Shown: positions 30,721 to 46,660 of the stretch, piece after piece
How positions within the stretch are numbered: the first letter of the stretch is position 1
Layout: every line of letters starts with the position of its first letter
Assembly (NCBI GenBank): GCA_038128225.1
Contig: JAYPJF010000001.1
Coordinates: 94,458 to 158,457, forward strand
Origin: a bacterium
Lineage (GTDB): Bacteria > Patescibacteriota > Minisyncoccia > Phycocordibacterales > UBA2100
Direction: 5' to 3'
Length of the DNA stretch: 64,000 nucleotides
The notes under the pieces: generated by a model
The model's input: the letters and a program-made list of their open reading frames with translations, nothing else
Database searches by the model: none
Told to the model about the DNA's origin: nothing
Position numbers and translations under genes: made by a program

Positions 30721-31106
30721 ATTTCAAACATTGCCTCGCCGCCTACGCGTTCCTTCCGTGCCTCATTGTCAGTTTTGATCCCGCGAGGAGTCGAGAGAAA
30801 TAACATGCCATGACCGTAGTGAACCGGTACAATTTCTCGCACCGTGCGATACAAACGACGGCCTGGTTTTGAGATTCGGCGCACGCCTTTAATTTTGTGC
30901 ACTCCGTTTTCATACGCGAGCGTAACGTCAATGAATTTATGGGTCTTCTTGCCTCGCTTTTCTACGCTTTGAATATACCCCACATCTTTAAGTTTTGAAG
31001 CGATCGCGTGCTTAAGATTTGAAAACGGTATCGAAATCACGGTTTTACCAACCGCGCCGGCGTTTTTCATCTGTATGAGAAAGTCTGCAATAGGATCAGT
31101 TACCAT
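30714..31106 (-). CDS. rpsH: 30S ribosomal protein S8
   Basis: MVTDPIADFLIQMKNA. Confidence 0.9.
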   Translation of the reverse strand: MVTDPIADFLIQMKNAGAVGKTVISIPFSNLKHAIASKLKDVGYIQSVEKRGKKTHKFIDVTLAYENGVHKIKGVRRISKPGRRLYRTVREIVPVHYGHGMLFLSTPRGIKTDNEARKERVGGEAMFEIW

Positions 31107-31110
31107 AGTA

Positions 31111-31296
31111 TTACCAAGAGCTTTTCTTTACACCAGGGATGTTACCTTCAAGCGCCTGTTCACGAAAACAAATGCGGCATAGGTCAAAATCGCGCATATA
31201 CCCACGTGGCCGACCACATTTAAAACAGCGACGAACTACCCGACTTTTAAATTTCGGTGTCCGCTTTGCTTTCGCGATCATTGATTTTTTAGCCAT
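31111..31296 (-). CDS. rpsZ: 30S ribosomal protein S14 (Zn-ribbon type Z)
   Basis: 61 aa, [20 protein letters not shown]. Confidence 0.9.
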
Positions 31297-31537
31297 GTGA
31301 TACGCACGCAGGAGTGGTCTGAAGATGTCTGCATCCCGCCTCTCGGCAATAAGATTACGACAACCTCACCGTGACCCTATTCTCACAGTTTGCCGAGGCA
31401 CTTATGAGATACGGATCCCCTTACGAGCTCGAGCACTATACGCGAAGCGCAAAGCAAAGTCAATTACGCTGTTCTTTGGCTTGAATAATCTATCAACGAT
31501 TGTATAGTGCACGCGGATCAAACTAAAGGAGCGCACT

Positions 31538-32299
31538 GTGGCACTTCTCATACGCATAGGTCTTGGGATACTTATTTTTGCCTTCGCGGGAGTTGTGGTT
31601 GACCAGCTGGCAAATGATGGGAGTATCGCCGCTGCAATCCGTCAATGGCTTCTGTGGATAGGACGAGTGATTTGGCAGTGGATTTTGAGCATTATTGGCT
31701 CAATCTACCGTCCTCTTGCCGTATGGCTCCAAGGCGCAATGAAACGATTCGCCCTGAGACGGCTCTTACAGCCGTTTTGGCGAGCGCTTTGGTATGTGGC
31801 AGCCTACGTTCTCGTACGTCATTGGGGCCAACTAAAGTATGCTGAACGACGAGAGAAAGTGGAAGAGCTCAAACGACGCTTTCTTGGAAAACTCTTTGCG
31901 CTTTGGAGCTACAGGCCGGGATTACCGCGATGGACACGTGCACTCATTGCCATTGGGGCAATTGGCGCGTGCGTATGGTTATTCATCATAATCAATGAAC
32001 GCCTGGGATGGTGGGAGGGGCTTCTGTTCTCTTTCGTTGCCGCATTCGTGGTCGAGAAACTGCCCCTCATCGGCTTCGACCAATTCAGTGCAATCATCAT
32101 GGAGCGGTGGCGCCCGATACGCGCGTGGGCGGATTGGTTTGCAGGAAAATACCCGCGCACCGCATGGTGGATCAGCTGGCTCTGGGCGCGCCCATTCTTC
32201 ATCTGGTTAGGGCGCAAACTTGGCCTCAATGAGAAGTTTGAAGTGGACACCGATGGAGACGGAGTGCGTGACGCGCCCGTTAAGAATAAAGCGGCGTGA
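31538..32299 (+). CDS. Hypothetical Trp-rich membrane protein, encoded on the opposite strand inside the ribosomal protein cluster
   Basis: 253 aa with several transmembrane helices and many Trp/Arg residues. It is followed by a strong bidirectional terminator. Confidence 0.5.
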   Translation: MALLIRIGLGILIFAFAGVVVDQLANDGSIAAAIRQWLLWIGRVIWQWILSIIGSIYRPLAVWLQGAMKRFALRRLLQPFWRALWYVAAYVLVRHWGQLKYAERREKVEELKRRFLGKLFALWSYRPGLPRWTRALIAIGAIGACVWLFIIINERLGWWEGLLFSFVAAFVVEKLPLIGFDQFSAIIMERWRPIRAWADWFAGKYPRTAWWISWLWARPFFIWLGRKLGLNEKFEVDTDGDGVRDAPVKNKAA

Positions 32300-32310
32300 C
32301 GTATCTGAAA

Positions 32311-32346
32311 GCCGCCCCTCACCTCTGAGGGGCGGCGGTTTTTTAG
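32311..32346. terminator. Bidirectional intrinsic terminator between the Trp-rich gene (+) and rplE (-)
   Basis: GCCGCCCCTCA-cctc-TGAGGGGCGGC followed by GGTTTTTT. Confidence 0.7.
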
Positions 32347-32353
32347 GTAAAAA

Positions 32354-32902
32354 TTATTCGGCTTTTTGGAGAGGAAACCCGAGATGCCGAACAAGTGCTT
32401 CTGCCTCTTCTTTTGTTTTCGCAGTCGTCACTACCGTAATTGCAAACCCAAAAACATCACGAAGGTCTTCGTCAGCGGTCTCAGGAAAAATCGTATGCTC
32501 CTTAATACCAACCGAATAATTTCCCATATCATCAAAGGCGGTCGCCTTGAGGCCGCGGAAGTCACGCGTGCGAGGGAGCGCGATATGAATCAGCTTGTCT
32601 ATGAATGCCCACATCCGAGCGCCACGAAGGGTGATTTGATATCCGATAACATCCCCCTCCCGAGTCTTGAACGTAGCAATAGCTTTTTTTGCCGCGCGCT
32701 CTGCGGGTTTTTGCCCTGTAATCAACGCGAGACGGTCCGCGATGAGTGCACGCTTTTTTTGATCGGTAATCTTTCCAATACCGCTCGAAATGACCACTTT
32801 TACCACCTTTGGTGATTGCATCACGTTTTTATATCCAAACTGAGTTTTCAGTGTCTGGTACACGTTTTTTTGCTTTTCTACTGTGATGTTTTGATGATCC
32901 AT
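32354..32902 (-). CDS. rplE: 50S ribosomal protein L5
   Basis: Clear L5 match. Confidence 0.9.
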   Translation of the reverse strand: MDHQNITVEKQKNVYQTLKTQFGYKNVMQSPKVVKVVISSGIGKITDQKKRALIADRLALITGQKPAERAAKKAIATFKTREGDVIGYQITLRGARMWAFIDKLIHIALPRTRDFRGLKATAFDDMGNYSVGIKEHTIFPETADEDLRDVFGFAITVVTTAKTKEEAEALVRHLGFPLQKAE

Positions 32903-32905
32903 ACT

Positions 32906-33211
32906 TTACATTTTTGAACCGCTTTTTTGTGCAACTCGCTCGCGCCCATCTTTTGAAACACGGTACGCGATACGACTTGGCTTACTGGTTTTTGGGTCAA
33001 CTACCATAACATTCGATACATGGAGAGGCATTGCCCGTTCCACAATCTGCCCTTTGCTTCGTGCTCGACTCGCTCGTTGATGGCGCTTAGCAATATTTAC
33101 CCCCTCGATAACGAGCCGATCTTTTTTTGGAAGTGCGCGCACGACAACACCCGTTTTCCCACGATCTTTTCCTGCGATCACTATCACCTTGTCTCCTTTG
33201 CGAATTTTCAT
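32906..33211 (-). CDS. rplX: 50S ribosomal protein L24
   Basis: MKIRKGDKVIVIAGKDRGKTG. Confidence 0.9.
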   Translation of the reverse strand: MKIRKGDKVIVIAGKDRGKTGVVVRALPKKDRLVIEGVNIAKRHQRASRARSKGQIVERAMPLHVSNVMVVDPKTSKPSRIAYRVSKDGRERVAQKSGSKM

Positions 33212-33213
33212 AT

Positions 33214-33594
33214 TTATACAATCTCAGGTGCAAGGGAGCCGATGCGCTGATACCCGCGGTCAACCACTTCACGCGGCACCGGGCCAAAAACACGGTTTGC
33301 GCGCGGCTCTTTTGCGTTCTTTCCCTTCCCTTCGATGACCACTACCGCATTTTCATCAAATGAAATGTACGAGCCGTCTTTGCGACGAAAAGGCTTGCGC
33401 TGACGCACAACAACCGCACGAAGAACGTCTTTCTTCTTAATCGGCTTGCGTGGCTCAGCAACACGTACTGAAATAACTATTTCATCCCCCAAGCGCGCAT
33501 ACCGCCGCTTACTCCCACCAAGAATTTTGAAGACATATCCGATCTTACCACCGGAGTTATCTGCAATTTTTACCATTGTTGTTGGTTGGATCAT
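33214..33594 (-). CDS. rplN: 50S ribosomal protein L14
   Basis: MIQPTTMVKIADNSGGK. Confidence 0.9.
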   Translation of the reverse strand: MIQPTTMVKIADNSGGKIGYVFKILGGSKRRYARLGDEIVISVRVAEPRKPIKKKDVLRAVVVRQRKPFRRKDGSYISFDENAVVVIEGKGKNAKEPRANRVFGPVPREVVDRGYQRIGSLAPEIV

Positions 33595-33597
33595 ACA

Positions 33598-33882
33598 TTA
33601 CTCTTCGGTCTCTGCGGCTGCCCCAGAAAGACGCTCTGCAATCTCGAAATACTTGCGCTTTGATTGTGGGCGCGTGGCGCGAATCAAAACCTGATCACCT
33701 ACTGCCACAGTGTTCCCTGGATTGTGGACCAAGTACTTCTTCTGGGTGCGCATGAACTTTTTGTACTTGGGGTGTTTTACATAGCGCGGCACAGCCACGG
33801 TAACCGTATCTTTCATTGCTGATTTAACAACGACGCCACGAAACTGGGTTCCTTGCTTTACTGTATGTTGCTGGTCTTTCAT
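33598..33882 (-). CDS. rpsQ: 30S ribosomal protein S17
   Basis: S17 family match; operon position. Confidence 0.85.
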   Translation of the reverse strand: MKDQQHTVKQGTQFRGVVVKSAMKDTVTVAVPRYVKHPKYKKFMRTQKKYLVHNPGNTVAVGDQVLIRATRPQSKRKYFEIAERLSGAAAETEE

Positions 33883-33897
33883 AAAACGTGATGCATG

Positions 33898-34101
33898 CTA
33901 CGCGGTTTTTTCCTCTCCTGCAAGCGTGCGGAGTTTCAGCTCAGTAAGCGCCTGGGCAATAACACGACGTGCATTGCGGCCTGCGCGTACGTTCCGTGAA
34001 CGGCTCCCCGCTTCGCCAAATCGAAATACACGCAACTCTTCTCGCTTTTCTTGGATCAGTTTTGCAAGATCGGCGTCCGTTTTTTTCTTAAGATCTTTCA
34101 T
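33898..34101 (-). CDS. rpmC: 50S ribosomal protein L29
   Basis: 67 aa; operon position. Confidence 0.85.
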   Translation of the reverse strand: MKDLKKKTDADLAKLIQEKREELRVFRFGEAGSRSRNVRAGRNARRVIAQALTELKLRTLAGEEKTA

Positions 34102-34105
34102 AGAT

Positions 34106-34525
34106 TTAACGGCTTGTGACTTTCACCTTGATTGGGAGTTTTGCCCCAGCCTTTTTCAAAGCATCCTGTGCAGTTTGCTCCTGAACGCCGTCGACTTCAA
34201 AAAGTATGCGGCCCGGACGCACTTCGAATACATAATCCTTAAGATCACCTTTCCCGCTTCCCATTCCCACCTCAGCAGCTTTTGCCGTGCGTGGGCGATC
34301 CGGAAAAATGCGGATCCACATTTTTCCCGTCTTCCCGAGCGAGCGCGCGATCACCTTACGCGCCGCCTCAATTTGGTTTGAGGTGATGCGAGACGCGGTG
34401 ATCGCACGCATCGCATGAGAACCAAAAGCGACGGTCACGCCGCGTGTCTCTGGATGAGATCGTTTTGCGGGGTGACTCCGGCCTGTCTGCCATTTTCGAT
34501 GTTTAGGACGTTTGGGGAATAACAT
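34106..34525 (-). CDS. rplP: 50S ribosomal protein L16
   Basis: L16 family match. Confidence 0.9.
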   Translation of the reverse strand: MLFPKRPKHRKWQTGRSHPAKRSHPETRGVTVAFGSHAMRAITASRITSNQIEAARKVIARSLGKTGKMWIRIFPDRPRTAKAAEVGMGSGKGDLKDYVFEVRPGRILFEVDGVQEQTAQDALKKAGAKLPIKVKVTSR

Positions 34526-34528
34526 ATG

Positions 34529-35215
34529 CTATTTTGTTGCGGTTGCTTCCGCGCGTTTCTCTTTGAAAATGTCGCCACGATAAATCCACACTTTGATACC
34601 GATGACACCATACGGAAGGTATGCTTCTTCGCGTGCAAAATCGATATCCGCGCGCAATGTCTGCAAAGGCACTCGTCCACGCTTCAGTTCTTCTTGGCGT
34701 GACATTTCTGCGCCACCAAGGCGCCCGGAAATGGCGATACGCACTCCCGAGACGTCTCTGTTTGCCATCACTTTTTCTGCAGTCTGTTTCATAACCCGAC
34801 GAAACGCCATACGTTTTTCAAGACCCTCGGCAATCATATACGCAACAATTGCGGCTTGTGATTCAGGAGAACGAACCTCCTCGATATCAAGCTTAATCGT
34901 CGGGGTGTCCTTGCGGGCGATCTTTTTTACCACATCAAAAATCTCTTGGGTGAGCTGCACACTCCCCTCACCTCCTCGTCCAATCAAAAGACCCGGGCGC
35001 GACGTCTTAACAAGAACACGAATGCTTTTTTCCCGACGTTCAAGTTCAATACTCGTTACATACATGCCCCGCAGCCGTTTCTTAAGGAAATTACGGATCG
35101 TCGTATCGATGCGAACATTATGCCGATACAATGCCGGGGTCGCCGCAAACCAGCGCGATTTCCAGTCACGAATAATTCCTAAACGATGTGCAAATGGGTG
35201 TACGGTGTGTGTCAT
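34529..35215 (-). CDS. rpsC: 30S ribosomal protein S3
   Basis: KH and S3-C domains. Confidence 0.9.
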   Translation of the reverse strand: MTHTVHPFAHRLGIIRDWKSRWFAATPALYRHNVRIDTTIRNFLKKRLRGMYVTSIELERREKSIRVLVKTSRPGLLIGRGGEGSVQLTQEIFDVVKKIARKDTPTIKLDIEEVRSPESQAAIVAYMIAEGLEKRMAFRRVMKQTAEKVMANRDVSGVRIAISGRLGGAEMSRQEELKRGRVPLQTLRADIDFAREEAYLPYGVIGIKVWIYRGDIFKEKRAEATATK

Positions 35216-35216
35216 A

Positions 35217-35636
35217 TTATTTCTTTGCTACCTTCTTTGCCGCGCGCGGTTTTGGTGTTGCTTTTGTTTTCTGTTCTGCGGCAGATTTCTTTGTTTTTTC
35301 TGTTTTCGCTCCCGAATGAGATCCAAGTTCGATACTAATGCAACTTGTTTTCTTCTGATACGGATGTGCGCTTCCGCGTGCGCCTGGCATATAGCGCCGC
35401 ATAACCACACCTTGATCGACAAGGATTTTTTGTACAAAAAGCGAGTCGCGTGCCGCACCTCGCGCTTCTGCGTTATGTACTGCAGAGTTGAGCAACTTCG
35501 CAAGCGCAGGTGCCGACTTTTTGTCCGCGAAGCGCAGAAGCGATAGTGCGCGAGATACTTCTTTGCCGCGAATCATATCCGCAACAAGGCGCACCTTACG
35601 TGGTGATTGACGATAGTTTTTCAAATACGCTTTCAT
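35217..35636 (-). CDS. rplV: 50S ribosomal protein L22 (Lys-rich C-terminal extension)
   Basis: L22 core plus a KKSAAEQKTKATPKPRAAKKVAKK tail. Confidence 0.9.
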   Translation of the reverse strand: MKAYLKNYRQSPRKVRLVADMIRGKEVSRALSLLRFADKKSAPALAKLLNSAVHNAEARGAARDSLFVQKILVDQGVVMRRYMPGARGSAHPYQKKTSCISIELGSHSGAKTEKTKKSAAEQKTKATPKPRAAKKVAKK

Positions 35637-35638
35637 GG

Positions 35639-35986
35639 TTATTTCTTAGCTGCAGCGGTATCGGCAGTCGTCTTTGCTGCTTTTGCTGCGGCAATTTCTG
35701 CCTCTTTTGCCTTAGTCTCAAGTTCTTTCTGCATCTTACCTCCATGGCGCCCGAAACGGGTAGTCGGAGAGAATTCACCTAAACGATGCCCCACCATTTC
35801 TTCGGTCACAAAAACGTCAACAAAATTCTTACCGTTGTGGACACCAAAGGTGTAGCCAACAAACTCCGGTGGAATTTGGCTTCTTCGTGCCCAGGTTTTG
35901 ATAGTGCCCTTACCTGCTTTTGCAGCCAAAACCTTCTTGAGAAGTTTCTCGTCGACGTACGGGCCTTTTTTAAGTGAGCGTGTCAT
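35639..35986 (-). CDS. rpsS: 30S ribosomal protein S19 (Ala/Lys-rich C-terminal extension)
   Basis: The start is refined to [11 protein letters not shown]19 core. Confidence 0.9.
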
Positions 35987-36043
35987 AGCAAAAATGCGCC
36001 AAAGCGCGTGCCGCATAGTATATGAATTTTAAATCGTTGTCAA
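35987..36043 (-). promoter_or_regulatory. Promoter (TTGACA, 17 nt, TACTAT) and a conserved Shine-Dalgarno-less leader abutting the rpsS ATG
   Basis: Minus strand: TTGACA-acgatttaaaattcata-TACTAT-gcggcaCGCGCTTTGGCGCATTTTTGCT-ATG. The 25-nt leader is identical at rpsL. Confidence 0.55.
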
Positions 36044-36111
36044 AGAGTTCCTTAAAATGTCTGTACGGGTGAAAATTGCGAACTAAACTAAACGGTACAT
36101 ACGAAGACCTC

Positions 36112-36147
36112 AGAAATTCAAAACCCCGCTTTCGCGGGGTTTTGATC
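36112..36147 (-). terminator. Intra-operon terminator or attenuator between rplB and rpsS
   Basis: AAACCCCGC-tttc-GCGGGGTTT hairpin followed by TTTTGAATTTCT on the minus strand. Confidence 0.5.
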
Positions 36148-36996
36148 TTACTGTTTTTTTCGTTTGCCTACTTTACGACGTGACACAATAAACACGTTGG
36201 AATATTTCTTAGGAGTCCGGGTCTTTTGTCCTTTGCCCGTTGGCTTGCCCCACATTGATTTTGCACGGCGCAACCCACGTCCTTGACGCCCTTCACCACC
36301 ACCATGAGGGTGATCAACCGGGTTCATTACTGAACCACGTACCGTCGGACGAATACCCATCTTCCGTGAACGACCTGCCTTACCAATATTGACCAATCGA
36401 TGTTCCGGATTTGAAACTTCACCAATCGATGCCCAACACGTATCGAGTACTCTGCGCACTTCGCTTGAAGGCATTTTAAGATGCGTGTACCCGTCGTCTT
36501 GCGCAATCACTTCGGCGAAGACTCCAGCTGAGCGTGCTACCTTCGCACCTCCGCGCGGCTTAATTTCAATATTGTACACAAAGGTACCAATCGGAATATT
36601 TTTAAGAAGCGCTCGATTACCAACCACGACAGGTGCGCTTTCGTGCGTCAAAATTTCCGTACCCACAACAACCGATCGCGGAAGCAGCACGTAGCGGCGC
36701 TCGCCATCGCGATAGGCAACAAGTCCAATATATCCTGAACGATTCGGGTCGTATTCGACTGTTTTCACAATTGCAGGCACTCCTGTTTTACCGTAGACGA
36801 AATCAATAGTGCGATACAAACGCTTGACCCCACCCCCTTTGTGTCGCGTTGTAATACGCCCTGCGCTATTGCGCCCAACTGCGCGTTTAAACCCACCTGT
36901 AAGCGCCTTTACCGGGCGCTCGGCTGTCACTACGTGTTCGTATGAAATACGAGACATCTGGCGGCGGCTTTTGGTATATGGACGAAATGTTTTCAT
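36148..36996 (-). CDS. rplB: 50S ribosomal protein L2
   Basis: HPHGGGEGR motif. Confidence 0.92.
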   Translation of the reverse strand: MKTFRPYTKSRRQMSRISYEHVVTAERPVKALTGGFKRAVGRNSAGRITTRHKGGGVKRLYRTIDFVYGKTGVPAIVKTVEYDPNRSGYIGLVAYRDGERRYVLLPRSVVVGTEILTHESAPVVVGNRALLKNIPIGTFVYNIEIKPRGGAKVARSAGVFAEVIAQDDGYTHLKMPSSEVRRVLDTCWASIGEVSNPEHRLVNIGKAGRSRKMGIRPTVRGSVMNPVDHPHGGGEGRQGRGLRRAKSMWGKPTGKGQKTRTPKKYSNVFIVSRRKVGKRKKQ

Positions 36997-36998
36997 AA

Positions 36999-37349
36999 TT
37001 ATGTGAGCGTAATAGTTTCACCCTCTTTAAGATACACGTACGCTTTTTTCGCTCGTGCAGTCGTGCCGCGCACTCCCGTGCGCGCGTTACGGACATCTTT
37101 GGTCGGAACAGGTGTGGTGCGCACTTTAGCAGGTACGACTTTGTAGACTGCCCGTATCGCAGCAACTATTTCAGTTTTTGAAGCGCCACGAGCAACATCG
37201 AAAACATACACGCGTCGCGCCGTTGCATCTGCCGCTTTTTCAGTGATGCGCGGGTTGCGCAAAACCTGGGCAAGATCACGTACCACCGGTTTTGAAACAC
37301 TCGTTGATGCGGTCGTTTTTGCTTTTTTATTACGTGAGAAAAGAGCCAT
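36999..37349 (-). CDS. rplW: 50S ribosomal protein L23
   Basis: L23 family match; operon position. Confidence 0.85.
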   Translation of the reverse strand: MALFSRNKKAKTTASTSVSKPVVRDLAQVLRNPRITEKAADATARRVYVFDVARGASKTEIVAAIRAVYKVVPAKVRTTPVPTKDVRNARTGVRGTTARAKKAYVYLKEGETITLT

Positions 37350-37351
37350 AG

Positions 37352-38008
37352 TTATTTTTCGTTGCGCTTTGCAAGCACGGCAACTGATCGATCGGGGTCA
37401 ATAACGACTATGTGTGCGTACGTAAGTGCGTCAACAGGATTTAGATTCTGCGTAGTCTCCACCACAACGTTTCCCATATTGCGGAAACTCTTTTTGATGA
37501 TCGGGTTTGATTCAGGAATCGAAACCAAAACGGCATTACGCTTCTTTGAAATCTTCACCCCCGCCACCGCAAGTGCGTCAAGTACTCGTTTTGCATCTTT
37601 TGTTTTCGGTGTTTCAAACGGGAGTGCATCCACAAAAATCACTGACCCGTCAGTAAACTTTTTCGAAAGAACGCTGAAAAGTGCCTTGGTACGCATTTTC
37701 CGATTTACTTTTTGCGCATAGTTTTTCTCGCTTAAAGGCCCATGTGTTACACCGCCACCTTTCCAAATCGGAGATCGTATGGAGCCATGGCGAGCGCGCC
37801 CGGTGCCTTTTTGTTTCCATGGTTTTTTACCGCCACCCCGTACTTCACCTCGCCCTTTTGTGTCAGCAACTGGGGTACGTGCGTTTGCTTGCATCGCGCG
37901 CACCACCTGACTTACTAGAGCCTCGTTCCACTTGACGCCAAACACGGCTTCCGGAAGTGTCACCGATCCGTTCTTTTTCCCTTCGTATGTATATACATCT
38001 GCTTTCAT
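37352..38008 (-). CDS. rplD: 50S ribosomal protein L4
   Basis: L4 family match. Confidence 0.9.
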   Translation of the reverse strand: MKADVYTYEGKKNGSVTLPEAVFGVKWNEALVSQVVRAMQANARTPVADTKGRGEVRGGGKKPWKQKGTGRARHGSIRSPIWKGGGVTHGPLSEKNYAQKVNRKMRTKALFSVLSKKFTDGSVIFVDALPFETPKTKDAKRVLDALAVAGVKISKKRNAVLVSIPESNPIIKKSFRNMGNVVVETTQNLNPVDALTYAHIVVIDPDRSVAVLAKRNEK

Positions 38009-38011
38009 ACT

Positions 38012-38623
38012 CTATGCTGCTGAAATTTCTACCAATGTCCCCGGGCGCCCTGGTACCGCTCCTGAAATAACAAGCGTGCCTGTATCAGTGTTTACTTGAA
38101 GCACCTGGAGGTTTCTCACGGTTACACGATCCCCACCCATGCGACCCGCCATGCGCATCCCCTTAATAACACGTCCGCCTGCGCGACCACCGCCCCCGAT
38201 TGAACCAGGTGCGCGTTCTGAGTGCTTGCGACCATGTGAGCGCATGTCTCCGCTGAACCCATGTCGCTTTACGACACCTTGGAAACCTTTCGCTTTTGAA
38301 ACCGCTGACACGCTAACCATGTCGCCTGGCGTGAACACAGAAAGATCCACTACCTGTCCACGGGTAAACGCTTCTGTTGTCTGTACTTCCTTAAGCGCAC
38401 GAAATACTCCGAGTTCTTTTGTGTGTCCCCGTTCAGGTTTGGTGCTATGTTTTTCTTTTTTATTTCCAAACCCAAGCTGCACTGCCTGGTACCCGTCGCT
38501 TTCCTGTGTTTTGAGCTGAGTTACGGTAAGCGGTCCTGCAGTAATGATCGTCGCAGCACGAACGTTGCCTTCTGCGTCAAAGATTTGTGTCATCGCCCCT
38601 TTGATACCGATCATGAATTTCAT
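38012..38623 (-). CDS. rplC: 50S ribosomal protein L3
   Basis: The start is refined to MKFMIGIKGAMTQIF. An upstream promoter (TTGCAA, 16 nt, TATAGT) sits at 38691..38718. Confidence 0.9.
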   Translation of the reverse strand: MKFMIGIKGAMTQIFDAEGNVRAATIITAGPLTVTQLKTQESDGYQAVQLGFGNKKEKHSTKPERGHTKELGVFRALKEVQTTEAFTRGQVVDLSVFTPGDMVSVSAVSKAKGFQGVVKRHGFSGDMRSHGRKHSERAPGSIGGGGRAGGRVIKGMRMAGRMGGDRVTVRNLQVLQVNTDTGTLVISGAVPGRPGTLVEISAA

Positions 38624-38690
38624 ATAAAAATTGCGCCAAACAACAATGGCGCCATGGCCATTGGTCCCTCCTGGGACGTAGCGTGCAGGC

Positions 38691-38718
38691 ACTATACACA
38701 AAGATTTTTAGATTGCAA
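38691..38718 (-). promoter_or_regulatory. Sigma70-like promoter for rplC
   Basis: TTGCAA, 16 nt, TATAGT on the minus strand, inside what the ORF track shows as the long 5' extension of L3. Confidence 0.5.
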
Positions 38719-38721
38719 GTT

Positions 38722-39096
38722 TCACTGCCGTGAGAGCGCCCCGCCTTGTTCCATTTTGCGATATATGAAATACCCGAGCGCGAGAACTATTAGCACCAAA
38801 ACACCCAGTGCAATAGAGTGCCCCCCGCGAGATTGTTCTTGAGGCACCTCCGATTCAACAAACCCATCATTACTCTCAAACTCGGGCGTAGCAACCGATT
38901 CAGTAATACGTTCAGGCGTAATACCTGCCTCAACTGATTTTTTTGTAAGAGAAGCGACGAGTGTGTCAAAATCTCCCTGCGACAACCCCTCTGTGGTCGC
39001 CTGTTCTTGAAGGGCAGCGCGAATCTCAGCAGCTACACTGGCTTCTTGCGCGTAAACCGGCACCGCAATCACTAAAAACAAAAACGCAATGATCAT
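38722..39096 (-). CDS. Hypothetical small secreted/membrane-anchored protein inserted between rpsJ and rplC
   Basis: N-terminal signal/transmembrane segment MIIAFLFLVIAVPVYA, an acidic middle region, and a C-terminal transmembrane segment LGVLVLIVLALGYFIY. Confidence 0.5.
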   Translation of the reverse strand: MIIAFLFLVIAVPVYAQEASVAAEIRAALQEQATTEGLSQGDFDTLVASLTKKSVEAGITPERITESVATPEFESNDGFVESEVPQEQSRGGHSIALGVLVLIVLALGYFIYRKMEQGGALSRQ

Positions 39097-39190
39097 GCGG
39101 GAAGTATACCGCACGCGCGATCCATAACATCCCCTTATCAACAAAACCCGCTTGCGGGCGGGTTTTGTTGCGTTTCCTCAAGGAAACACT

Positions 39191-39544
39191 TTACATCATT
39201 TTTACGTCAATATTGACTCCTGAAGGCAAATCAATGTTTGTAAGTGCCTCAATGATCTTCGGTTCAGGATTCATGATGTCGATCATCCGTTTGTGAACTC
39301 TCATTTCGAATTGTTCTCGCGCGTCCTTGTGGACGAATGTCGAACGGTTCACGGTGTATTTACGGATATCAATGGGGAGCGGTACAGGTCCAACCACTTT
39401 CGCATTGAAGCGTACAGCGGTGTCCATGATTTGTTTGACTGCGTTATCAAGCACGCGATGTTCATATGCGCGTACGCGTATACGAAGCCGTCCTTGGGCA
39501 TCAGTCTTTTTTGTCCGCTTTGAAGCTGTCATAGTACAAGCCAC
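39191..39544 (-). CDS. rpsJ: 30S ribosomal protein S10
   Basis: RLRIRVRAYEHRVLDNAVKQIMDTAVRFNAKVVGPVPLP. Confidence 0.9.
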   Translation of the reverse strand: MACTMTASKRTKKTDAQGRLRIRVRAYEHRVLDNAVKQIMDTAVRFNAKVVGPVPLPIDIRKYTVNRSTFVHKDAREQFEMRVHKRMIDIMNPEPKIIEALTNIDLPSGVNIDVKMM

Positions 39545-39577
39545 GAGACTCTAACGAAACACCTCGTGAAAGTCAAG

Positions 39578-40777
39578 TTAGGCAACAACTTTAGTTACTA
39601 CACCTGCGCCAACGGTCTTGCCACCCTCGCGAATAGCAAAGCGCTGCTGCTCTTCAAGAGCAATCGGGCCGACGAGTTTTACCTTGAAGGTAACCGTATC
39701 GCCTGGCATAACCATCTCGACACCCTCTTTAAGCGTTACCTCACCGGTAACATCGGTAGTACGCATGTAGAATTGCGGTTTATACCCTGAGAAGAATGGC
39801 GTATGGCGACCGCCTTCCTCCTTCGAAAGAATGTAGACTTCCGACTCAAATTCTGTGTGAGGAGTAATTGAGCCAGGAGCACACAAAACTTGTCCGCGAT
39901 GCACATCTTCCTTTTTTGTGCCGCGCAAAAGAATTCCTGCGTTGTCTCCAGCTTCGCCATGATCAAGTGATTTGTTGAACATTTCGATGCCAGTTACCGT
40001 TGTTTTTGCAGTGTCCTTGATGCCAACAATCTCGACATCAGCACCTACCTTGAGAACGCCGCGTTCGATACGACCAGTAACCACGGTTCCGCGACCCTCG
40101 ATCGAGAAGATGTCCTCAATCGGCATGAGAAACGGCTTTTCTTTGTCACGCTGCGGCATTGGAATGTACTCGTCGAGCGCTTTTACAAGTTCAAGTACTT
40201 TTTGTGCCCATGGATCGTCAACCGATGAAGCTTCAAGTGCCTTAAGACCCGAACCGCGAATTACCGGTGCGTTAGCGCCGTCAAATTCGTACTTGGTCAA
40301 AAGTTCACGCACCTCTTCTTCAACGAGATCGATAAGGTCATTGTCCTCAACCATGTCGCACTTATTGAGCCAAACAATGATCTTAGGCACACCCACTTGG
40401 CGAGCCAAGAGAATGTGTTCGCGAGTCTGTGGCATAACACCATCGGTTGCTGCAACCACCAAAACTGCGCCATCCATCTGTGCGGCACCCGTGATCATGT
40501 TTTTGATGTAATCAGCGTGCCCTGGAGCATCGATGTGAGCGTAGTGCCGATTCGGCGTCCAGTACTCAGAGTGGTGAATCGAAATGGTAATGCCGCGAGC
40601 CTTTTCCTCGGGCGCGGAGTCGATTTTATCGACTGCCTCAACGCGCGCACCATATCCTTGGTCCTTGGCCATATCCAAAACCCTAAGGATTGCAGCGGTC
40701 GAGGTTGTCTTGCCGTGGTCAACGTGGCCAATGGTGCCCACGTTTACGTGCGGCTTCGAACGATCGAAATCTGTCAT
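39578..40777 (-). CDS. tuf: Elongation factor Tu
   Basis: GHVDHGKTT; full-length EF-Tu of 399 aa. Confidence 0.97.
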
Positions 40778-41080
40778 AATAAATAGCTTACGGGACCGTT
40801 AGATACGAAAGCGCAAGAACATGCCTCTCGTCTCTAACGCTACCCACTTATAAACGAAGGCGCGTACTGCGCCGATCGTAAAAAAAGTGTAACAGAGTTA
40901 CAGTGCACGTCAAGAAAGACCTTCGGCACCTCGTTAATTTTTATACCGTATAAAAGCATGTTTCTACACCACTGCTCACATCGGAAGTGCACGCAAACTG
41001 TTGCTCCCCGCACTTAGCTGTCCTTCTGTTACTTTATAGGCGCACCGAACGATACGATGCGAGAAAGGTGTTTTGATAGG

Positions 41081-42253
41081 CTATTCCCCACCATGCTCCA
41101 TCTCTAGCGTATACAAGCCAGCACGATCAGGCACAACTCCATGAACAACCATATCGTTTGCAATATACGTATGATCCCCGCTAACGTATAAGTTATAGAG
41201 TTTCTGAGCTTCTTGCGTGTTAGGGATTACTTCAAGAGTTTCCACTACAAGTTCGCCATCTGCAAGAAGGATAACGTCTCCAACATCCAGCTGTCCAACA
41301 CGTCCTGCAAGCTGATCATATGCTTCAACTTCAGCCATTGACGGGTTTGCTGCTTTCCACCCTTCAGCGGTCATCACAGGGTGGTTGTCGGTCATAAACG
41401 GCTCACCTCCATTTATACGAATCAGGTGCTGTGGTTTGCTTTCCCACAGCATTGTGTGGTCGAGTGCAAGCACGACATTACTACCACCATGGGGAGCGCG
41501 CACATGGTCACCAACACGAATTTCGTAAATCGGTTTTTGCGAACCGTCTTCCATTGTCACCAAGGTTTCTTTAGTGAAACAAGAACAACGCCCGCCACTT
41601 GGGCATCCTGAAGAAGTGAGTGTGCCATTAACGCATCTCGTTACGTTCACACCGTTAACACTTCCAGTACAACCGCTTGTACAAATACTCACAGCCGATA
41701 CAGCACCATTGGGTACATCCCCACACGTAGTGGTACTGCAGACAATACCGTCTCCGGCACTATTTGCCTTACAATACCTACTTGCCGTGAGCGTACTGAC
41801 TTGTGGGTCTGTTTCCGTGTATGAAAGCAGTGGCTGGTCGGAGGTACACGTTACCTGTGTCCCGTTAGTGGTACACCACTTCCCACTTGTAAGCGTACCT
41901 ACCTGAGGGTCTGATTCACTTACTGAGGTGAAGTTGGTCCACCCCCCACCGCTGTTTTTGTATTCAATGACCCCCGCATTATCCCTGATACCGTATCCGG
42001 CCGATCCTGCAGTCGTACCAAAATTTAAGTATCGAGAGGCACCGGAGAGAATCGCGTTTCCGTATACCGCGAGCGAGTTTACACCAAGACCCGCGTTCTT
42101 GATCTGATCAGTTGTCCCAACATTAACGGGAGCCGACACGTTTCCATTTGGAGGTGTCTGCGTAGGGCCCGTCCAGGCATACACAACACCAAGCGTCGCA
42201 AAAATTACAGCTCCTGTTATGAACGACGCGATGTGTGAAAGGGGTTTGGGCAT
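41081..42253 (-). CDS. Secreted protein with N-terminal Cys-containing repeats and a C-terminal Hint (hedgehog/intein-like, BIL-type) domain
   Basis: N-terminal hydrophobic segment. Repeats ESDPQVGTLTSGKWCTT and ETDPQVSTLTASRYCKA. The Hint domain starts CFTKETLVTMEDGSQKPIYEIRVGDHV and ends YNLYVSGDHTYIANDMVVHG, matching the intein N- and C-terminal splicing blocks. Confidence 0.65.
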   Translation of the reverse strand: MPKPLSHIASFITGAVIFATLGVVYAWTGPTQTPPNGNVSAPVNVGTTDQIKNAGLGVNSLAVYGNAILSGASRYLNFGTTAGSAGYGIRDNAGVIEYKNSGGGWTNFTSVSESDPQVGTLTSGKWCTTNGTQVTCTSDQPLLSYTETDPQVSTLTASRYCKANSAGDGIVCSTTTCGDVPNGAVSAVSICTSGCTGSVNGVNVTRCVNGTLTSSGCPSGGRCSCFTKETLVTMEDGSQKPIYEIRVGDHVRAPHGGSNVVLALDHTMLWESKPQHLIRINGGEPFMTDNHPVMTAEGWKAANPSMAEVEAYDQLAGRVGQLDVGDVILLADGELVVETLEVIPNTQEAQKLYNLYVSGDHTYIANDMVVHGVVPDRAGLYTLEMEHGGE

Positions 42254-42255
42254 AC

Positions 42256-43140
42256 TTATAGTTCACGCCAAAATGGCACAGCTCTAATAGTAACACTCTC
42301 TTCCAGAGTAGAATCGTCTAGACCTGTGCATGAAAGTGTGTATGTAACCGTGGCAGTAACCGGCGAGGATGTCTGGGAACCCGAAAGTCCACTCCACGCA
42401 TCACCATTCCCCGAAACGGTACACGAGACCGCGTCATCAGTACTCCAGGTGATTGTTGCCGTAGTACCTCGTACCAATAAAGACGGTGTTGCAGTGATCG
42501 TGCCGCCTGGGTCTGGTGCCGGTACACACGCACCGCTTTGACACTGGTAGCTACACACCTGCGGCGTGCCAGCAATCGTATCGATACCACATGACAAATC
42601 TTTATAGTGAAGCGTATCGTCAGTACAGTAGTACCCGTACGTCTGCTCGCAAGGATAATTTGCAGAAAAATCAATCCACCCCAGGTTTGTATCCCCCCAC
42701 GCCCAATCTAAAATCGCATTGCCAACCGCACTGAGACCGTAGGAAACCCCGTCAAGACTAACCCATCCATCCCACGCTCCATTTTGCGGATCTGAGGACG
42801 AAAGAACTTTCAACCACCCAGTCACTGAGCTCCCAGAAACTTGCGGAGTACATGGTGCACTAGGACATCCAGTCACATCAGCTGTTTGGGCGCTGATCCA
42901 ACCAACGTTCTCACTCCACGCATACCCAGAAATGACGCCACTTCCATTCATCGAGAGTCCGTACGAGACAGTACTGCATGTACCCAGGTCGCTGCAATTG
43001 AGCGAAATCCATCCAATTGTGTCGCTCCACGCCCACCCAGTTATTGCTTGTGTGCTTTGGGAAAATGCCGCGCGAGGTGCAAGAAACGATCCTGCCAGGA
43101 TCATACAGAACGCAAATGCCACAAGGAGCGAGTGCTTCAT
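42256..43140 (-). CDS. Secreted protein with repeated G(W/Y)AWS(D/E)xxGWI motifs
   Basis: Signal peptide MKHSLLVAFAFCMILAGSFLAPRAAFS. Motifs GWAWSDTIGWISLNC, GYAWSENVGWISAQT, LDWAWGDTNLGWIDFS. Confidence 0.55.
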   Translation of the reverse strand: MKHSLLVAFAFCMILAGSFLAPRAAFSQSTQAITGWAWSDTIGWISLNCSDLGTCSTVSYGLSMNGSGVISGYAWSENVGWISAQTADVTGCPSAPCTPQVSGSSVTGWLKVLSSSDPQNGAWDGWVSLDGVSYGLSAVGNAILDWAWGDTNLGWIDFSANYPCEQTYGYYCTDDTLHYKDLSCGIDTIAGTPQVCSYQCQSGACVPAPDPGGTITATPSLLVRGTTATITWSTDDAVSCTVSGNGDAWSGLSGSQTSSPVTATVTYTLSCTGLDDSTLEESVTIRAVPFWREL

Positions 43141-43514
43141 AGATCAGTTAAACGCACAGAGCTGAGGATTTGGAGTTTTTCTTCCTCAGACATGTTTTGT
43201 GACGGGCTTCCGCTGACTTGCTCAAGAACCTCGAGTTTTTCAACCTCGGATAGTGCCGAGGGCTGTGTCGTCTCTTGTACCGCACGAAGTATTTCTTCTT
43301 TGTTCAAAACACCTCCCTCGTCGTCACCAAGCGCGTCATGCGGTTCAAAAACGGGGGCTGTGTTTACCTGCGACCCTGAAAAAAAATAAAACGCAAAAAA
43401 GAGCAGCACGCCTGCAAGCGCAAATCCGATACTAAACTCAAGTATCGGATGGAATGCGCGTTCCCCGCGCAAAAAACGTACCCACGCACTCTCTGTGGGA
43501 ACTTGCTCACTCAT
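43137..43514 (-). CDS. Hypothetical small membrane-anchored protein (125 aa)
   Basis: One transmembrane helix (ILEFSIGFALAGVLLFFAFYFF) followed by an acidic tail. ATGA overlap with the upstream gene. Confidence 0.45.
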   Translation of the reverse strand: MSEQVPTESAWVRFLRGERAFHPILEFSIGFALAGVLLFFAFYFFSGSQVNTAPVFEPHDALGDDEGGVLNKEEILRAVQETTQPSALSEVEKLEVLEQVSGSPSQNMSEEEKLQILSSVRLTDL

Positions 43515-43572
43515 GTCGGCAGTATACTACTCCCGAAGCGAAGACGAGCGAGCCCTTGTGGATGAAAATGAT

Positions 43573-45717
43573 TTACTTCCGACTTGCCATTACTTCATCA
43601 GCAACGTTTCGTGGAACAACCGCGTAGTGATCAAATTCCATAGTTGAGTTTGCACGACCTTCGGTCATAGAGCGAAGCACTGTTGTGTACCCAAACATTT
43701 CTGAGAGCGGTACGTGTGCCGTGATTACCTTGAGTCCCCCAGTACGATCATCGATTGACTGAATTGAGCCGCGTTTACCATTGAGATTGCCCGTAACATC
43801 ACCCATAAATTTTTCCGGTGTTACGACTTCGATTTTCATAATAGGCTCGAGAAGTGCTGGCTTGGCAGATCGCACTGCTTCTTGAAATGCCTGCGAAGCA
43901 GCGATTTTGAAGGCGATTTCTGATGAGTCGACTTCGTGGTATGTACCATCAAACAATTCGACTGAAATATCCACGACTGGATACCCTGCAAGCACACCGC
44001 GCCCCATCGCTTCGCGTACACCTTTCTGCACTGCGGGAATATATTCGTTCGGAATAACACCACCTTTAATGTTGTTGATGAATTCGAAATGATCTTCGCG
44101 CGTGACGCTATGCGGGATTTTTGCACCTTCCTCTAACGGTTCCAGCGGCTTCACGCGGATCTTTACGTGGCCATATTGGCCCTTACCACCAGTCTGCTTG
44201 ATGTATTTGTTTTCGATCTCAGCGTTGCCTTGAATGGTTTCGCGATACGCAACCTGTGGTTTGCCAAGCGTTGCCTCAACACCAAATTCTCGGCGCATAC
44301 GGTCAACAATAATATCGAGGTGTAACTCACCCATTCCCGCAACAAGCGTGTCGCCTGTTTCTTCATCCGAATACACACGGAATGTTGGATCTTCGTCACC
44401 AAGTTTGGCAAGCGCCATACCCATTTTTTCTTGGTCGTTCTTAGTTTTAGGCTCGATACGAGCTGAAAGAACTGGTTCGCGGAATTTAATTTGTTCGAGA
44501 ATAATTGGACTCTTCTCATCACAGATTGTATGACCGATTTTTGCCTCTTTTGCTCCAACGAGTGCAGCAATTTCTCCCGTGAACACCTTTTTTATTTCTT
44601 CTCGCTTGTCTGCCTGAAGGCGAACAATACGTCCAACTCGCTCCTTTGTTCCGTTCGATGCATTGTACACATAACTCCCTGCTTCAAGGGTGCCTGAATA
44701 GACGCGGAAGAACGAAAGTTGCCCCACGAACGGGTCAGCCTGGAGTTTAAAGACGAGCGCGGCAAAAGGTTCTGCGTCTGATGGGCCGCGAGTAATCTCT
44801 TCGCCAGTGTCAGGATTTACTCCCTTAGCTGCAGGAAGATCGAGAGGACAAGGAAGATAGTCAACGACGGCATCGAGCACTAACTGGACTCCTTTGTTTT
44901 TGAGCGCCGTCCCACACAAGACAGGGAATATTTTGTTCGCAATGACTGCCTTACGCAGCGTAGTCTTAAGTTCTGAAAGTGACGGCTCCTTACCTTCAAG
45001 GTATGCACTCATCAGACCCTCATCGTGTTCGACGATCGCTTCGATTAATTCCGCGCGGTACTTACCCGCGTCCGCCTTGAAAGCCTCTGGAATTGGCCCC
45101 GCAATAACCTCTTTACCTTTATCCCCCGCAAAGGTGTATGCCTGCATCGTCAAAAGATCAATAACACCTTCCATTGCATCCTCTTCTCCCATAGGAAGTT
45201 GTGTGCGAATTGCGTTTTTAGACAAGCGATCTTTGATCATTCCGTATGAGCGTTCAAAAGAAGCGCCGGTGCGATCAAGTTTATTCACAAAACAAAGCCG
45301 TGGCACATTCGCGTCTTCCGCATAGCGCCAGTTAGTTTCTGTCTGAGGCTCAACTCCCGCGACACCGTCAAATACGACAACGGCGCCGTCTAGCACACGC
45401 ATTGAACGCTGCACTTCTGAGGTGAAGTCAATGTGTCCCGGAGTATCGATGATATTGAAACGGTGCTTGTTAGAAGTGTCAGCACCCATGTATGTTGGGT
45501 TCCAGAAACACGTGATTGCAGCAGCGGTGATGGTAATGCCGCGCTCGCGCTCCTGCTCCATCCAGTCGGTCACTGTAGCACCCTCGTGCACCTCTCCGAT
45601 TTTATGGCTTTCGCCAGTGTAGAAAAGAATGCGCTCCGATGTGGTTGTTTTTCCCGCATCAATGTGGGCGATAATACCGAAGTTGCGGACTTTCTCGAGT
45701 GGGTAGTCGCGGTTCAT
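43573..45717 (-). CDS. fusA: Elongation factor G
   Basis: AHIDAGKTT; full-length EF-G of 714 aa. Confidence 0.97.
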   Translation of the reverse strand: MNRDYPLEKVRNFGIIAHIDAGKTTTSERILFYTGESHKIGEVHEGATVTDWMEQERERGITITAAAITCFWNPTYMGADTSNKHRFNIIDTPGHIDFTSEVQRSMRVLDGAVVVFDGVAGVEPQTETNWRYAEDANVPRLCFVNKLDRTGASFERSYGMIKDRLSKNAIRTQLPMGEEDAMEGVIDLLTMQAYTFAGDKGKEVIAGPIPEAFKADAGKYRAELIEAIVEHDEGLMSAYLEGKEPSLSELKTTLRKAVIANKIFPVLCGTALKNKGVQLVLDAVVDYLPCPLDLPAAKGVNPDTGEEITRGPSDAEPFAALVFKLQADPFVGQLSFFRVYSGTLEAGSYVYNASNGTKERVGRIVRLQADKREEIKKVFTGEIAALVGAKEAKIGHTICDEKSPIILEQIKFREPVLSARIEPKTKNDQEKMGMALAKLGDEDPTFRVYSDEETGDTLVAGMGELHLDIIVDRMRREFGVEATLGKPQVAYRETIQGNAEIENKYIKQTGGKGQYGHVKIRVKPLEPLEEGAKIPHSVTREDHFEFINNIKGGVIPNEYIPAVQKGVREAMGRGVLAGYPVVDISVELFDGTYHEVDSSEIAFKIAASQAFQEAVRSAKPALLEPIMKIEVVTPEKFMGDVTGNLNGKRGSIQSIDDRTGGLKVITAHVPLSEMFGYTTVLRSMTEGRANSTMEFDHYAVVPRNVADEVMASRK

Positions 45718-45729
45718 AGGAGGCCTATA

Positions 45730-46191
45730 CTACCACGCAAAGTGAGCAAACGCTTTGTTTGCTTCCGCCATTTTGTGCATATTATCTTTTTTAGCAATTG
45801 CCGCCCCTTCATTGTTGCGCGCTTGGAGAATTTCTTGCGCAAGCTGCTTTCCCATAGGTATCCCTTTTGCCGCTTCTGCAGTTTGTACTATCCACCGAAG
45901 CGCGAGTGCGAGCTGGCGTTCCGGACGAACAGGAACTGGAACTTGGTAGTTTGCGCCACCAACACGACGTGACCGTACTTCAAGATTTGGTTGCACATTT
46001 TGGAGTGCTTCCTCAAAAATCGCTACCGGATCTCCTTCTTTTTTCATTTCTTCAAACGCTGCATACACTACTTTTCGCGCAGTATCTTTCTTACCGCGCT
46101 CCATCACGTAATTGATGAGTTTGGCAACACGAACCGATTTATATCTCGGGTCTGGTGCGGTGGTAGGTTTTTTCTTAAGCGGACGTCGCAT
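45730..46191 (-). CDS. rpsG: 30S ribosomal protein S7
   Basis: S7 family match. Confidence 0.9.
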   Translation of the reverse strand: MRRPLKKKPTTAPDPRYKSVRVAKLINYVMERGKKDTARKVVYAAFEEMKKEGDPVAIFEEALQNVQPNLEVRSRRVGGANYQVPVPVRPERQLALALRWIVQTAEAAKGIPMGKQLAQEILQARNNEGAAIAKKDNMHKMAEANKAFAHFAW

Positions 46192-46193
46192 AA

Positions 46194-46604
46194 TTAGTTT
46201 TTAGGTTTCTTTGCTCCATAGCGCGAGCGGCCGCGGCGGCGTGCATCAACTCCCGTTGCATCAAGTTTACCGCGCACGATAGTGTATCGGAGTCCGATGT
46301 CTTTTACACGACCTCCTCGAAGAAGCACGACCGAGTGCTCTTGGAGCGCGTGTTTCTCACCAGGGATATACGCCGTTACTTCTTGCTGGTTTGTAAGGCG
46401 CACGCGAGCGATTTTTCGAATAGCTGAGTTAGGTTTTCGAGGAGTTTTTGTAGTTACCTTCACACACACCCCACGCTTAAAAGGCGCCGGGTAAAATGTT
46501 GGGCGGTTCTGAATAGTATTAAAACCACGGCGCAGTGCAGTAGTTTTCGATTTAGAAATCTTATCCTTGCGGGATTTTCGTACGAGCTGATTGATTGTTG
46601 CCAT
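46194..46604 (-). CDS. rpsL: 30S ribosomal protein S12
   Basis: [11 protein letters not shown] block; 136 aa. Confidence 0.92.
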
Positions 46605-46660
46605 AGCAAAAATGCGCCAAAGCGCGCTGCGAGTGTACTATGCAATTTCTTGGCGCGCAA
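46605..46660 (-). promoter_or_regulatory. Promoter (TTGCGC, 17 nt, TACACT) and the same Shine-Dalgarno-less 25-nt leader abutting the rpsL ATG
   Basis: CGCGCTTTGGCGCATTTTTGCT-ATG, identical to the rpsS leader. Confidence 0.5.

Follow-up and report, generated by a model that had tools for sequence, protein, structure and literature searches.

Ahead of the ribosomal protein genes rpsS and rpsL, in a 64,000-nucleotide stretch of contig JAYPJF010000001.1 from a member of the Patescibacteriota (GenBank assembly GCA_038128225.1), stands the same 22-nucleotide (nt) leader, which comprises a small GC hairpin and a run of U residues. The whole stretch is called the window below, and all positions are counted within it. 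Comparison with related genomes indicates that this leader is one instance of a lineage-wide module on translation operons, seen at genes for S19, S12, S14, EF-Tu, EF-G and IF3, and again as the last element of a longer structured leader of rplC. The reading that we favour, tentatively and with a probability of roughly 40%, is that the module acts as a leaky promoter-proximal attenuator or pause. The data point to an undescribed leader module, together with a candidate rplC leader, as a variation on known attenuator and ribosomal-protein leader (r-leader) themes.

Patescibacteria (the Candidate Phyla Radiation) have tiny genomes, few transcription factors and unusually fragmented ribosomal gene clusters, and to our knowledge almost nothing is known about gene regulation in their uncultured members. 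A simple RNA module that is read by the polymerase, restricted to translation genes and present in many species would be a candidate for coordinating ribosome synthesis in this group.

An exact repeat before rpsS and rpsL

The sequence CGCGCTTTGGCGCATTTTTGCT followed by ATG is found exactly twice in the window, adjoining rpsS and rpsL, where no copy is expected by chance. Taken as a 25-mer that includes the start codon (CGCGCTTTGGCGCATTTTTGCTATG), it lies on the minus strand at 35984-36008 and 46602-46626, and its final triplets are the starts of S19 (rpsS, ATG at 35986-35984) and S12 (rpsL, ATG at 46604-46602). No further copy is present in the window at up to three mismatches, and none was found in 100 shuffles. 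The identical stretch of at least 25 nt that the original prediction had described is thus a real, non-random and noncoding element. The identity ends at the ATG, with divergence right after it, and on its other side begins 5-7 nt past the -10 hexamers, so that the 22-nt block is probably the complete 5' untranslated region (5'UTR) of both mRNAs, as judged from predicted start sites.

The rpsS 5'UTR (CGCGCUUUGGCGCAUUUUUGCU; 35987-36008, minus strand) contains the hairpin GCGC-UUUG-GCGC at 35996-36007, with four base pairs (bp) and a tetraloop, which was found by a hairpin scan and by folding with ViennaRNA. This is followed by a single A, by UUUUU (35994-35990), and by GCU before the AUG. The promoter TTGACA-17-TACTAT (36015-36043, minus strand) matches the consensus at 10 of 12 positions, its layout recurs before S19 in relatives, and the hairpin begins 7 nt past its -10 hexamer. 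At rpsL the same 22 nt occupy 46605-46626 (minus strand), with the hairpin at 46614-46625 and the U-run at 46608-46612, as seen from the repeat, the hairpin scan and the fold. Its promoter, TTGCGC-17-TACACT (46632-46660, minus strand), was read from the sequence; the weak -35 hexamer was missed by the promoter scan, and the hairpin begins 6 nt past the -10 hexamer. Both hairpins therefore sit 6-7 nt past a -10 hexamer and 8 nt before the ATG, with a predicted stem energy of -5.5 kcal/mol. Across the window, the promoter scan returned 18 promoter-like matches where shuffled sequences would give 20.1, which is no excess, and for this reason we take the promoter calls from their conservation in relatives and not from the scan by itself.

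The window contains the S10, str and spc clusters only in fragments. A strong terminator with a 12-bp stem (36118-36145, minus strand; from sequence reading and a scan) and a new promoter part rplB from rpsS, and non-ribosomal genes lie in the intervals fusA-tuf, rpsJ-rplC and rplE-rpsN.

Leader architecture in related genomes

The window was compared with 80 related loci, making 81 sources, from Paceibacteria/Kaiserbacteria-like genomes; the nearest L3 proteins outside this species are ~71-72% identical and come from metagenome-assembled genomes of that kind. The 22-mer had been put forward as a conserved motif that relatives would share, and this did not hold: it is absent upstream of the orthologous rpsS, rpsL and rplC genes in all 80 related loci. 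A degenerate 20-mer, TTTGGCGCAWTTTTKMTATG, covering the 3' part of the leader and the ATG, gave 24 matches in a metagenome scan, about the number expected by chance and none in a ribosomal context; the species itself is seemingly absent from the scanned collection, and the scan provides no genome-wide count for this organism. The same species is represented in NCBI and Logan assemblies; in its contigs (98.9-100% identical) all leaders are free of polymorphism, a result that carries no information for targets so short. Fine-scale footprinting was set aside, the nearest other L3 being only 72% identical. The primary leader sequence is therefore private to this species, and the architecture is the conserved part. 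The identity of the rpsS and rpsL leaders, which relatives do not share, is most readily accounted for by recent copying or gene conversion in this species. We found nothing specific in the literature on Patescibacteria leaders or on their use of Shine-Dalgarno (SD) sequences.

In the relatives we see a recurring layout of a near-consensus sigma70-type promoter, a gap of 7-9 nt, a GC hairpin of 4-7 bp and varying sequence, a T-run, an AU-rich stretch of variable length and the ATG, as in the Kaiserbacteria locus L022 (cgTAGTATagccagacGCTCgcaaGAGCttttttgttATG). A promoter-first scan of the window and the 80 loci, in which a hairpin and T-run were required 3-14 nt after a promoter-like site, considered 482 such sites 5' of open reading frames (ORFs) and found the module at 55. 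All but two of these modules precede translation genes (53 of 55: S19 20, EF-Tu 16, S14 9, EF-G 6, L3 1 and S8 1), and it was found at only 2 of the 230 promoter-like sites before non-translation genes (Fisher p ~3e-14). This enrichment is independent of the T-run requirement, since a hairpin alone is seen at 55 of 177 intergenic promoter-like sites of translation genes compared to 4 of 168 others. Among those 55 translation-gene hairpins, 45 (82%) have at least five T in the next 8 nt, while the four control hairpins have 1, 1, 1 and 5. Of the S19 genes that stand apart from rplB, 30 of 43 have the module, as do 10 of 27 S12 genes. The element had originally been tied to ribosomal protein genes at the head of operons, and a specificity for the first genes of translation operons is borne out.

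Sequence alignment of the S19 leaders aligned the 3' arm and T-run and left the 5' arms shifted, and it was not used for pair counting. An alignment fitted to the hairpin was avoided, as it would be circular for that purpose.

Pairing, U-run and position of the leader hairpin

Counted over stems with 5 bp or more, a single internal G·U pair is required in 17 cases, and an A·C pair would be required in just one. Tolerance of G·U and not of A·C indicates that the pairing is selected in the sense RNA and not as a DNA palindrome. A palindromic DNA operator at +1 was accordingly rejected, on this asymmetry, on loop lengths that vary from 3 to 9 nt, and on hairpin sequences that differ between operons of one genome in relatives.

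The T-runs of the leaders are richer than those at 3' terminators (6.1 compared to 5.1 T of 8) and directly adjoin the stem. Most often the first paired base follows the -10 hexamer by 7-9 nt (35 of 55 cases), which places the hairpin at about +1 to +4 and, if transcription starts at the usual, predicted position, implies 0-3 unpaired nt at the 5' end. The distance from hairpin to ATG ranges from 9 to 176 nt across leaders and usually exceeds 50 nt for EF-Tu. The module thus appears to track the predicted transcription start and not the start codon, and the proposal of a translational enhancer abutting the start codon is not sustained as the general function: at EF-Tu and some S14 genes the module lies 50-176 nt from the ATG, anchored to the promoter.

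The rplC leader

Directly 5' of the rplC ATG at 38623 is TTTGGCGCAATTTTTAT, which is related to the 3' half of the rpsS/rpsL leader, as originally noted. The promoter found by the scan, TTGCAA-16-TATAGT (38691-38718, minus strand), lies ~67 nt 5' of the ATG, so the shared 17-mer makes up just the 3'-terminal part of a leader that is longer and structured. The suggestion that the promoter stands at the distance for the shared block to be the entire 5'UTR, which fits rpsS and rpsL, consequently fails here.

This structured leader RNA (38624-38685, minus strand) is kept upstream of rplC in relatives. A covariance model, R1, built from an alignment of 15 leaders, matches the window at 38621-38685 with 45.8 bits and reaches E<0.01 at 22 places in the 81 sources, one in the window and 21 in relatives, every one of them just 5' of rplC. 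The 5' domain identified with RNAalifold (38657-38682, minus strand) comprises an outer stem, GCUA:UGGC, around the stem-loop P1, GUCCC-AGGA-GGGAC. Over 28 model matches, 96% of cells in this domain are paired and compensatory changes are seen in four of the five P1 pairs; none of 500 shuffles equalled the observed score.

Downstream of this domain is a terminator-like hairpin, GCGCCA-UUGUUGUU-UGGCGC (38652-38633), followed by AA and UUUUU (38630-38626), the whole spanning 38626-38652 on the minus strand and found by scan and fold. Scans also identified a candidate antiterminator, CAAUGGC-CAUGGC-GCCAUUG (38644-38663, minus strand), which shares sequence with the 5' domain on one side and with the terminator's 5' arm on the other. 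A conserved CAAUGG(C) has two possible pairings, upstream to close the 5' domain or downstream with GCCAUUG, a segment shared in part with the 5' arm of the terminal hairpin GCGCCA...UGGCGC with its U-run. In 10 leaders of relatives the equivalent pairing is more stable than in shuffled controls (z -3 to -5.6), and the terminator 5' arm takes part in the alternative helix despite differences in sequence. We therefore read the leader as an anti-antiterminator/antiterminator/terminator layout, supported by covariation. Terminators of rplC-type leaders often have only 5-6 bp.

The terminal hairpin connects rplC to the shorter leaders. Common to rplC, rpsS and rpsL are UUUGGCGCA, the U-run and the 8-nt spacing to the ATG, and the rpsS/rpsL hairpin equals the rplC terminal hairpin minus 8 loop nt, GCGC[CATTGTTG]TTTGGCGCA, at the same distance from the ATG.

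In Escherichia coli, as is well established, the terminator hairpin region of the S10 leader is the target of the protein L4, and attenuation there is L4-mediated and NusA-dependent. The rplC leader resembles that system in having a hairpin and U-run before the first gene of an L3-L4-L23-L2 operon, a 5' domain, and mutually exclusive antiterminator and terminator helices. It differs in that the operon here begins at rplC and not at rpsJ, and in lacking any leader match in Rfam by sequence or structure; the rpsS and rpsL versions, at 22 nt, have no upstream domain. The upstream part of the rplC leader likely contains a protein-binding domain, for which L4 or L3 would be a guess at the ligand. 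As for the r-protein operator of the original prediction, a sequence-specific one is unlikely for the short leaders, since in relatives hairpin sequences and loop lengths differ between operons of one genome, and autoregulation is plausible only at rplC, where a genuine structured leader exists.

Rfam 15 gave no r-leader match, either at gathering thresholds across the whole window or at E up to 10 over 30900-47000; the only matches were a tmRNA, one tRNA and chance matches on the rplB terminator. The window and the related loci contain no rRNA. The r-leader survey of Eckert and Weinberg makes no mention of Parcubacteria, Patescibacteria, candidate phyla, uL3, uL4 or uS19 (PMC7247131). The rplC leader is a candidate new ribosomal-protein leader family, absent from Rfam.

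A proposed promoter-proximal attenuator or pause

A hairpin with an adjoining U-run is a signal that RNA polymerase itself reads. Such a signal would explain why the primary sequence is not conserved while a U-run adjoins the stem, and why one and the same element opens the simple leaders, at their 5' end, and closes the rplC switch, at its 3' end. The rplC copy makes sense only as a terminator, because it lies ~60 nt from the 5' end of its leader, with its 5' arm overlapping an alternative helix. In the mechanism that we favour, the rpsS or rpsL RNA would begin at, or 1-2 nt before, the GCGC-UUUG-GCGC hairpin, which would then act as a weak intrinsic terminator or hairpin pause while the RNA is being made, halting part of the polymerases ~20-25 nt into the transcript. 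Read-through might be set by a general factor, such as NusA/NusG, nucleoside triphosphate (NTP) supply or start-site choice, and at rplC by a protein-controlled antiterminator. The fragments of the S10, str and spc clusters, which are separate operons in this lineage, would in this way be co-regulated.

Known systems offer partial parallels. NusA/NusG-dependent weak intrinsic terminators and hairpin pause sites, as in Bacillus subtilis and at the his pause of E. coli, likewise combine a weak hairpin and a U-tract with general elongation factors, but such sites are scattered over the genome and are not confined to +1 to +25 of one operon class. Attenuation leaders of Firmicute r-protein operons also place a leader terminator on translation operons, and infC in the window too has a hairpin and U-run. 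The B. subtilis infC leader, under L20 control, is an attenuation leader of ~200 nt that mimics an rRNA site (PMC1865079), whereas the infC leader here has ~30 nt, no binding domain and no conserved sequence.

Several observations count against attenuation. The leader hairpins are much weaker than gene-end terminators: the median leader stem has 5 bp and -5.3 kcal/mol, compared to 9 bp and -12.5 kcal/mol for 325 such terminators in the same genomes (Mann-Whitney U test, p 5e-14). They fall outside the terminator range of stability, and stems so short imply inefficient unaided termination. The rpsS, rpsL and infC leaders show no switch, as a competing antiterminator helix is visible only at rplC. 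Folded singly, the short leaders are predicted to form their hairpins with z-scores of only -0.6 to -1.1 against shuffles, which is not significant, and we have therefore taken support for the hairpins from the comparative data. Finally, a tight placement at +1 to +4 is not needed for attenuation and exactly suits a protective 5' stem-loop.

Alternative explanations

That last point leads to the main rival, a 5'-terminal stabiliser combined with an SD-independent landing pad, which we judge somewhat unlikely. The hairpin would shield the mRNA from 5'-end-dependent decay (of RppH, RNase J or RNase E type) and would also block 'leaderless-type' entry of 70S ribosomes, while an unstructured U/A-rich tract would recruit the 30S subunit, in an S1-type manner, to the nearby AUG. 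Weak stems and precise 5' placement fit this idea as well as attenuation or better: short stems are enough for 5' protection, the preferred spacing from the -10 hexamer would leave almost no unpaired 5' end, and stems are often extended by 5' A residues pairing with the first U residues (AAGC...GCUU, or ACGA:UCGU at tuf). The module is confined to highly expressed translation genes, and the majority of the remaining operon-first genes in the window look leaderless, so that the ribosome itself would cover their 5' end. The E. coli ompA and B. subtilis aprE/ermC 5' stem-loops are similar in standing a few nt from the 5' end of abundant mRNAs without a need for particular sequence. They differ, though, in requiring no adjoining U-run and in not being confined to translation genes, and a stabiliser leaves unexplained why most leader stems are adjoined by a T-run that is richer than at real terminators. 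Nor does it account for the near-identical hairpin and U-run of rplC, far from the 5' end in a terminator/antiterminator arrangement. As for the landing pad, the interval between hairpin and AUG is AU-rich and G-poor, and in rpsS, rpsL, rplC and infC an unstructured A/U-rich tract lies within ~20 nt of the AUG (AUUUUUGCU-AUG and similar). At tuf, however, and in many EF-Tu and S14 leaders of relatives, the U-run is too remote from the AUG (50-176 nt) to be a ribosome landing site.

Attenuation could also take a more sweeping form, which we hold to be distinctly unlikely: a global 5' mini-terminator that marks translation mRNAs (r-protein operons, EF-Tu, EF-G and IF3) in a factor-independent manner, with read-through set globally. 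Start-site choice or NTP supply might do this, since loss of 1-2 nt from a 5' arm of 4-5 bp would abolish the hairpin, as in pyrC-type switching; NusA/NusG levels would be another global setting. If this were true, it would let growth rate govern ribosome synthesis in tiny genomes that have few regulators, and the rplC leader would be an elaborated version of this device, with a protein-sensing antiterminator added. It would also be a functional bacterial analogue of the eukaryotic 5'TOP regulon. The likeness is an analogy only, in that a pyrimidine-containing 5'-end signal marks r-protein and elongation-factor mRNAs as one class; 5'TOP is cap-adjacent, depends on LARP1/mTOR, belongs to an unrelated lineage and involves no hairpin.

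We consider improbable a sequence-specific operator, through which an r-protein or other regulator would repress translation or transcription of rpsS, rpsL and rplC together. The perfect 22-nt identity at two operons, with UUUGGCGCA and a U-run at a third, is what such an operator would look like, and all five leader hairpins in the window have GCGC-type arms; L4, moreover, is encoded in the rplC operon here, and its E. coli counterpart targets the S10-leader terminator hairpin region. Against this, none of the 80 relatives keeps the sequence before the orthologous genes, hairpin sequences and loop lengths vary between operons of a single relative genome, and the pattern of tolerated mismatches speaks against a DNA palindrome. 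The metagenome scan and Rfam likewise gave no match in a ribosomal context and no ribosomal leader.

An insulating terminator overlapped by the start site strikes us as very improbable. Such a hairpin would end read-through from upstream, while the operon's own transcripts, starting within the 5' arm, would leave it unformed and pass. Nothing that looks like a separate terminator stands between the rpsL or infC promoter and the genes upstream of it, and the hairpin start is tightly placed beside the predicted +1. At rpsS, on the other hand, the strong rplB terminator already stands upstream of the promoter, and the leader hairpin is therefore not needed to end the upstream operon. Leader stems far weaker than real 3' terminators are the opposite of what an insulator needs, the usual 7-nt spacing means that the whole hairpin is transcribed in most cases, and the restriction to translation genes would be unexplained.

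We give hardly any credence to a neutral remnant of recent duplication or gene conversion, with an incidental hairpin and T-run: the identity is unique to this species, the relatives' rpsS and rpsL leaders differ from each other and strain variants offer no informative polymorphism, but dozens of species have the same architecture, with compensatory changes, and it is strongly enriched before translation genes.

Shine-Dalgarno use and gene starts

None of the rpsS, rpsL and rplC leaders contains a GGAG-type motif, as the original prediction stated. This is not distinctive, since SD sequences are scarce throughout the window: an SD-like 4-mer precedes ~10 of 70 putative starts, and 18 of the 70 look leaderless, with a -10-like hexamer ending 5-10 nt upstream. 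Leaderless mRNAs seem to be the default in the window, and internal operon genes begin a few bases past the preceding stop codon. A TAnnnT box is seen 5-10 nt before many operon-first non-ribosomal starts (e.g. 9163, 14254, 14383, 24962, 27491, 45717 and 59076). A real GGAGG-type SD sequence is present at a few genes (4783, 5771, 10177, 49808 and 53809). A perfect GAGGAGGG lies at 46661-46670 (minus strand), between the stop codon of a 129-aa cupredoxin-like gene and the rpsL -35 hexamer, with no start codon at SD distance.

Public gene calls give S19 125 aa from an ATG at 36016, adding 10 codons that run through the leader (35987-36016, minus strand). We rejected this start: it overlaps the -10 hexamer, S19 proteins of relatives begin M-x-R-S, and the rpsL copy has no in-frame start codon. 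These points indicate a true rpsS start at 35986, giving 115 aa, and for annotation they would mean that public gene calls extend S19 through a noncoding leader. The public L3 call (200 aa) is three codons short of the MKF... start that is kept in relatives.

Other leaders and neighbouring genes

Two further operons in the window, those of infC and tuf, share the layout of the short rpsS and rpsL leaders. On the plus strand, infC has the promoter TTTTCA-17-TACAGT, then 6 nt, the hairpin GCGCGC-GAU-GCGCGC (16959-16973) and UUUU (16924-16988 in all; scans and fold), with 11 nt from UUUU to the ATG at 16989. The tuf leader was found by scans at 40859-40913 (minus strand), with the promoter TTGACG-16-TACACT (40913-40886) and the hairpin GGCGC-AGUAC-GCGCC (40873-40859); the stem is lengthened by ACGA:UCGU and followed by a U-rich tract, and the ATG is 81 nt further on (40777). 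The remainder of this leader (40778-40845, minus strand) contains a long imperfect hairpin of ~25 bp that ends ~20 nt 5' of the ATG, and the entire tuf leader folds far better than shuffles (z -4.4; none of 200 as good).

The S14 gene rpsN (31297-31463, minus strand) is served by a promoter of its own, TTGACT-17-TATAGT (31463-31435). Its leader, ~135 nt in length with the long-range pairing gccucggcaa...uugccgagaggc (minimum free energy -47.4 kcal/mol, z -1.9), may be an S8-type ribosomal leader. It lacks the 5' hairpin and U-run in the window, whereas nine S14 leaders in relatives have one. Within the same spc cluster, between rplE and rpsN and on the opposite strand, is a 253-aa membrane-like ORF (31538-32336, plus strand), after which stands a strong terminator with an 11-bp stem (32311-32336).

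The interval between fusA and tuf (41081-43514, minus strand) holds three non-ribosomal genes, of 125 aa, 294 aa and 390 aa (Hint/Vint domain matches). The 294-aa gene is a hot spot of strain polymorphism, with dense differences at 42361-42577 in the locus L082.

A tRNA-Ile with anticodon UAU (tat) lies at 4603-4676 (minus strand), in a stretch of ORF size that simple ORF calling would mistake for a gene; such a tRNA is an uncommon bacterial way of reading AUA. In the region 10246-11214 (plus strand), smpB looks leaderless, with TATAGT 6 nt before its ATG at 10252, and the tmRNA gene (10824-11214) is immediately 3' of it, encoding the tag peptide ANKTARGILSPIQAKDLQFAYALA.

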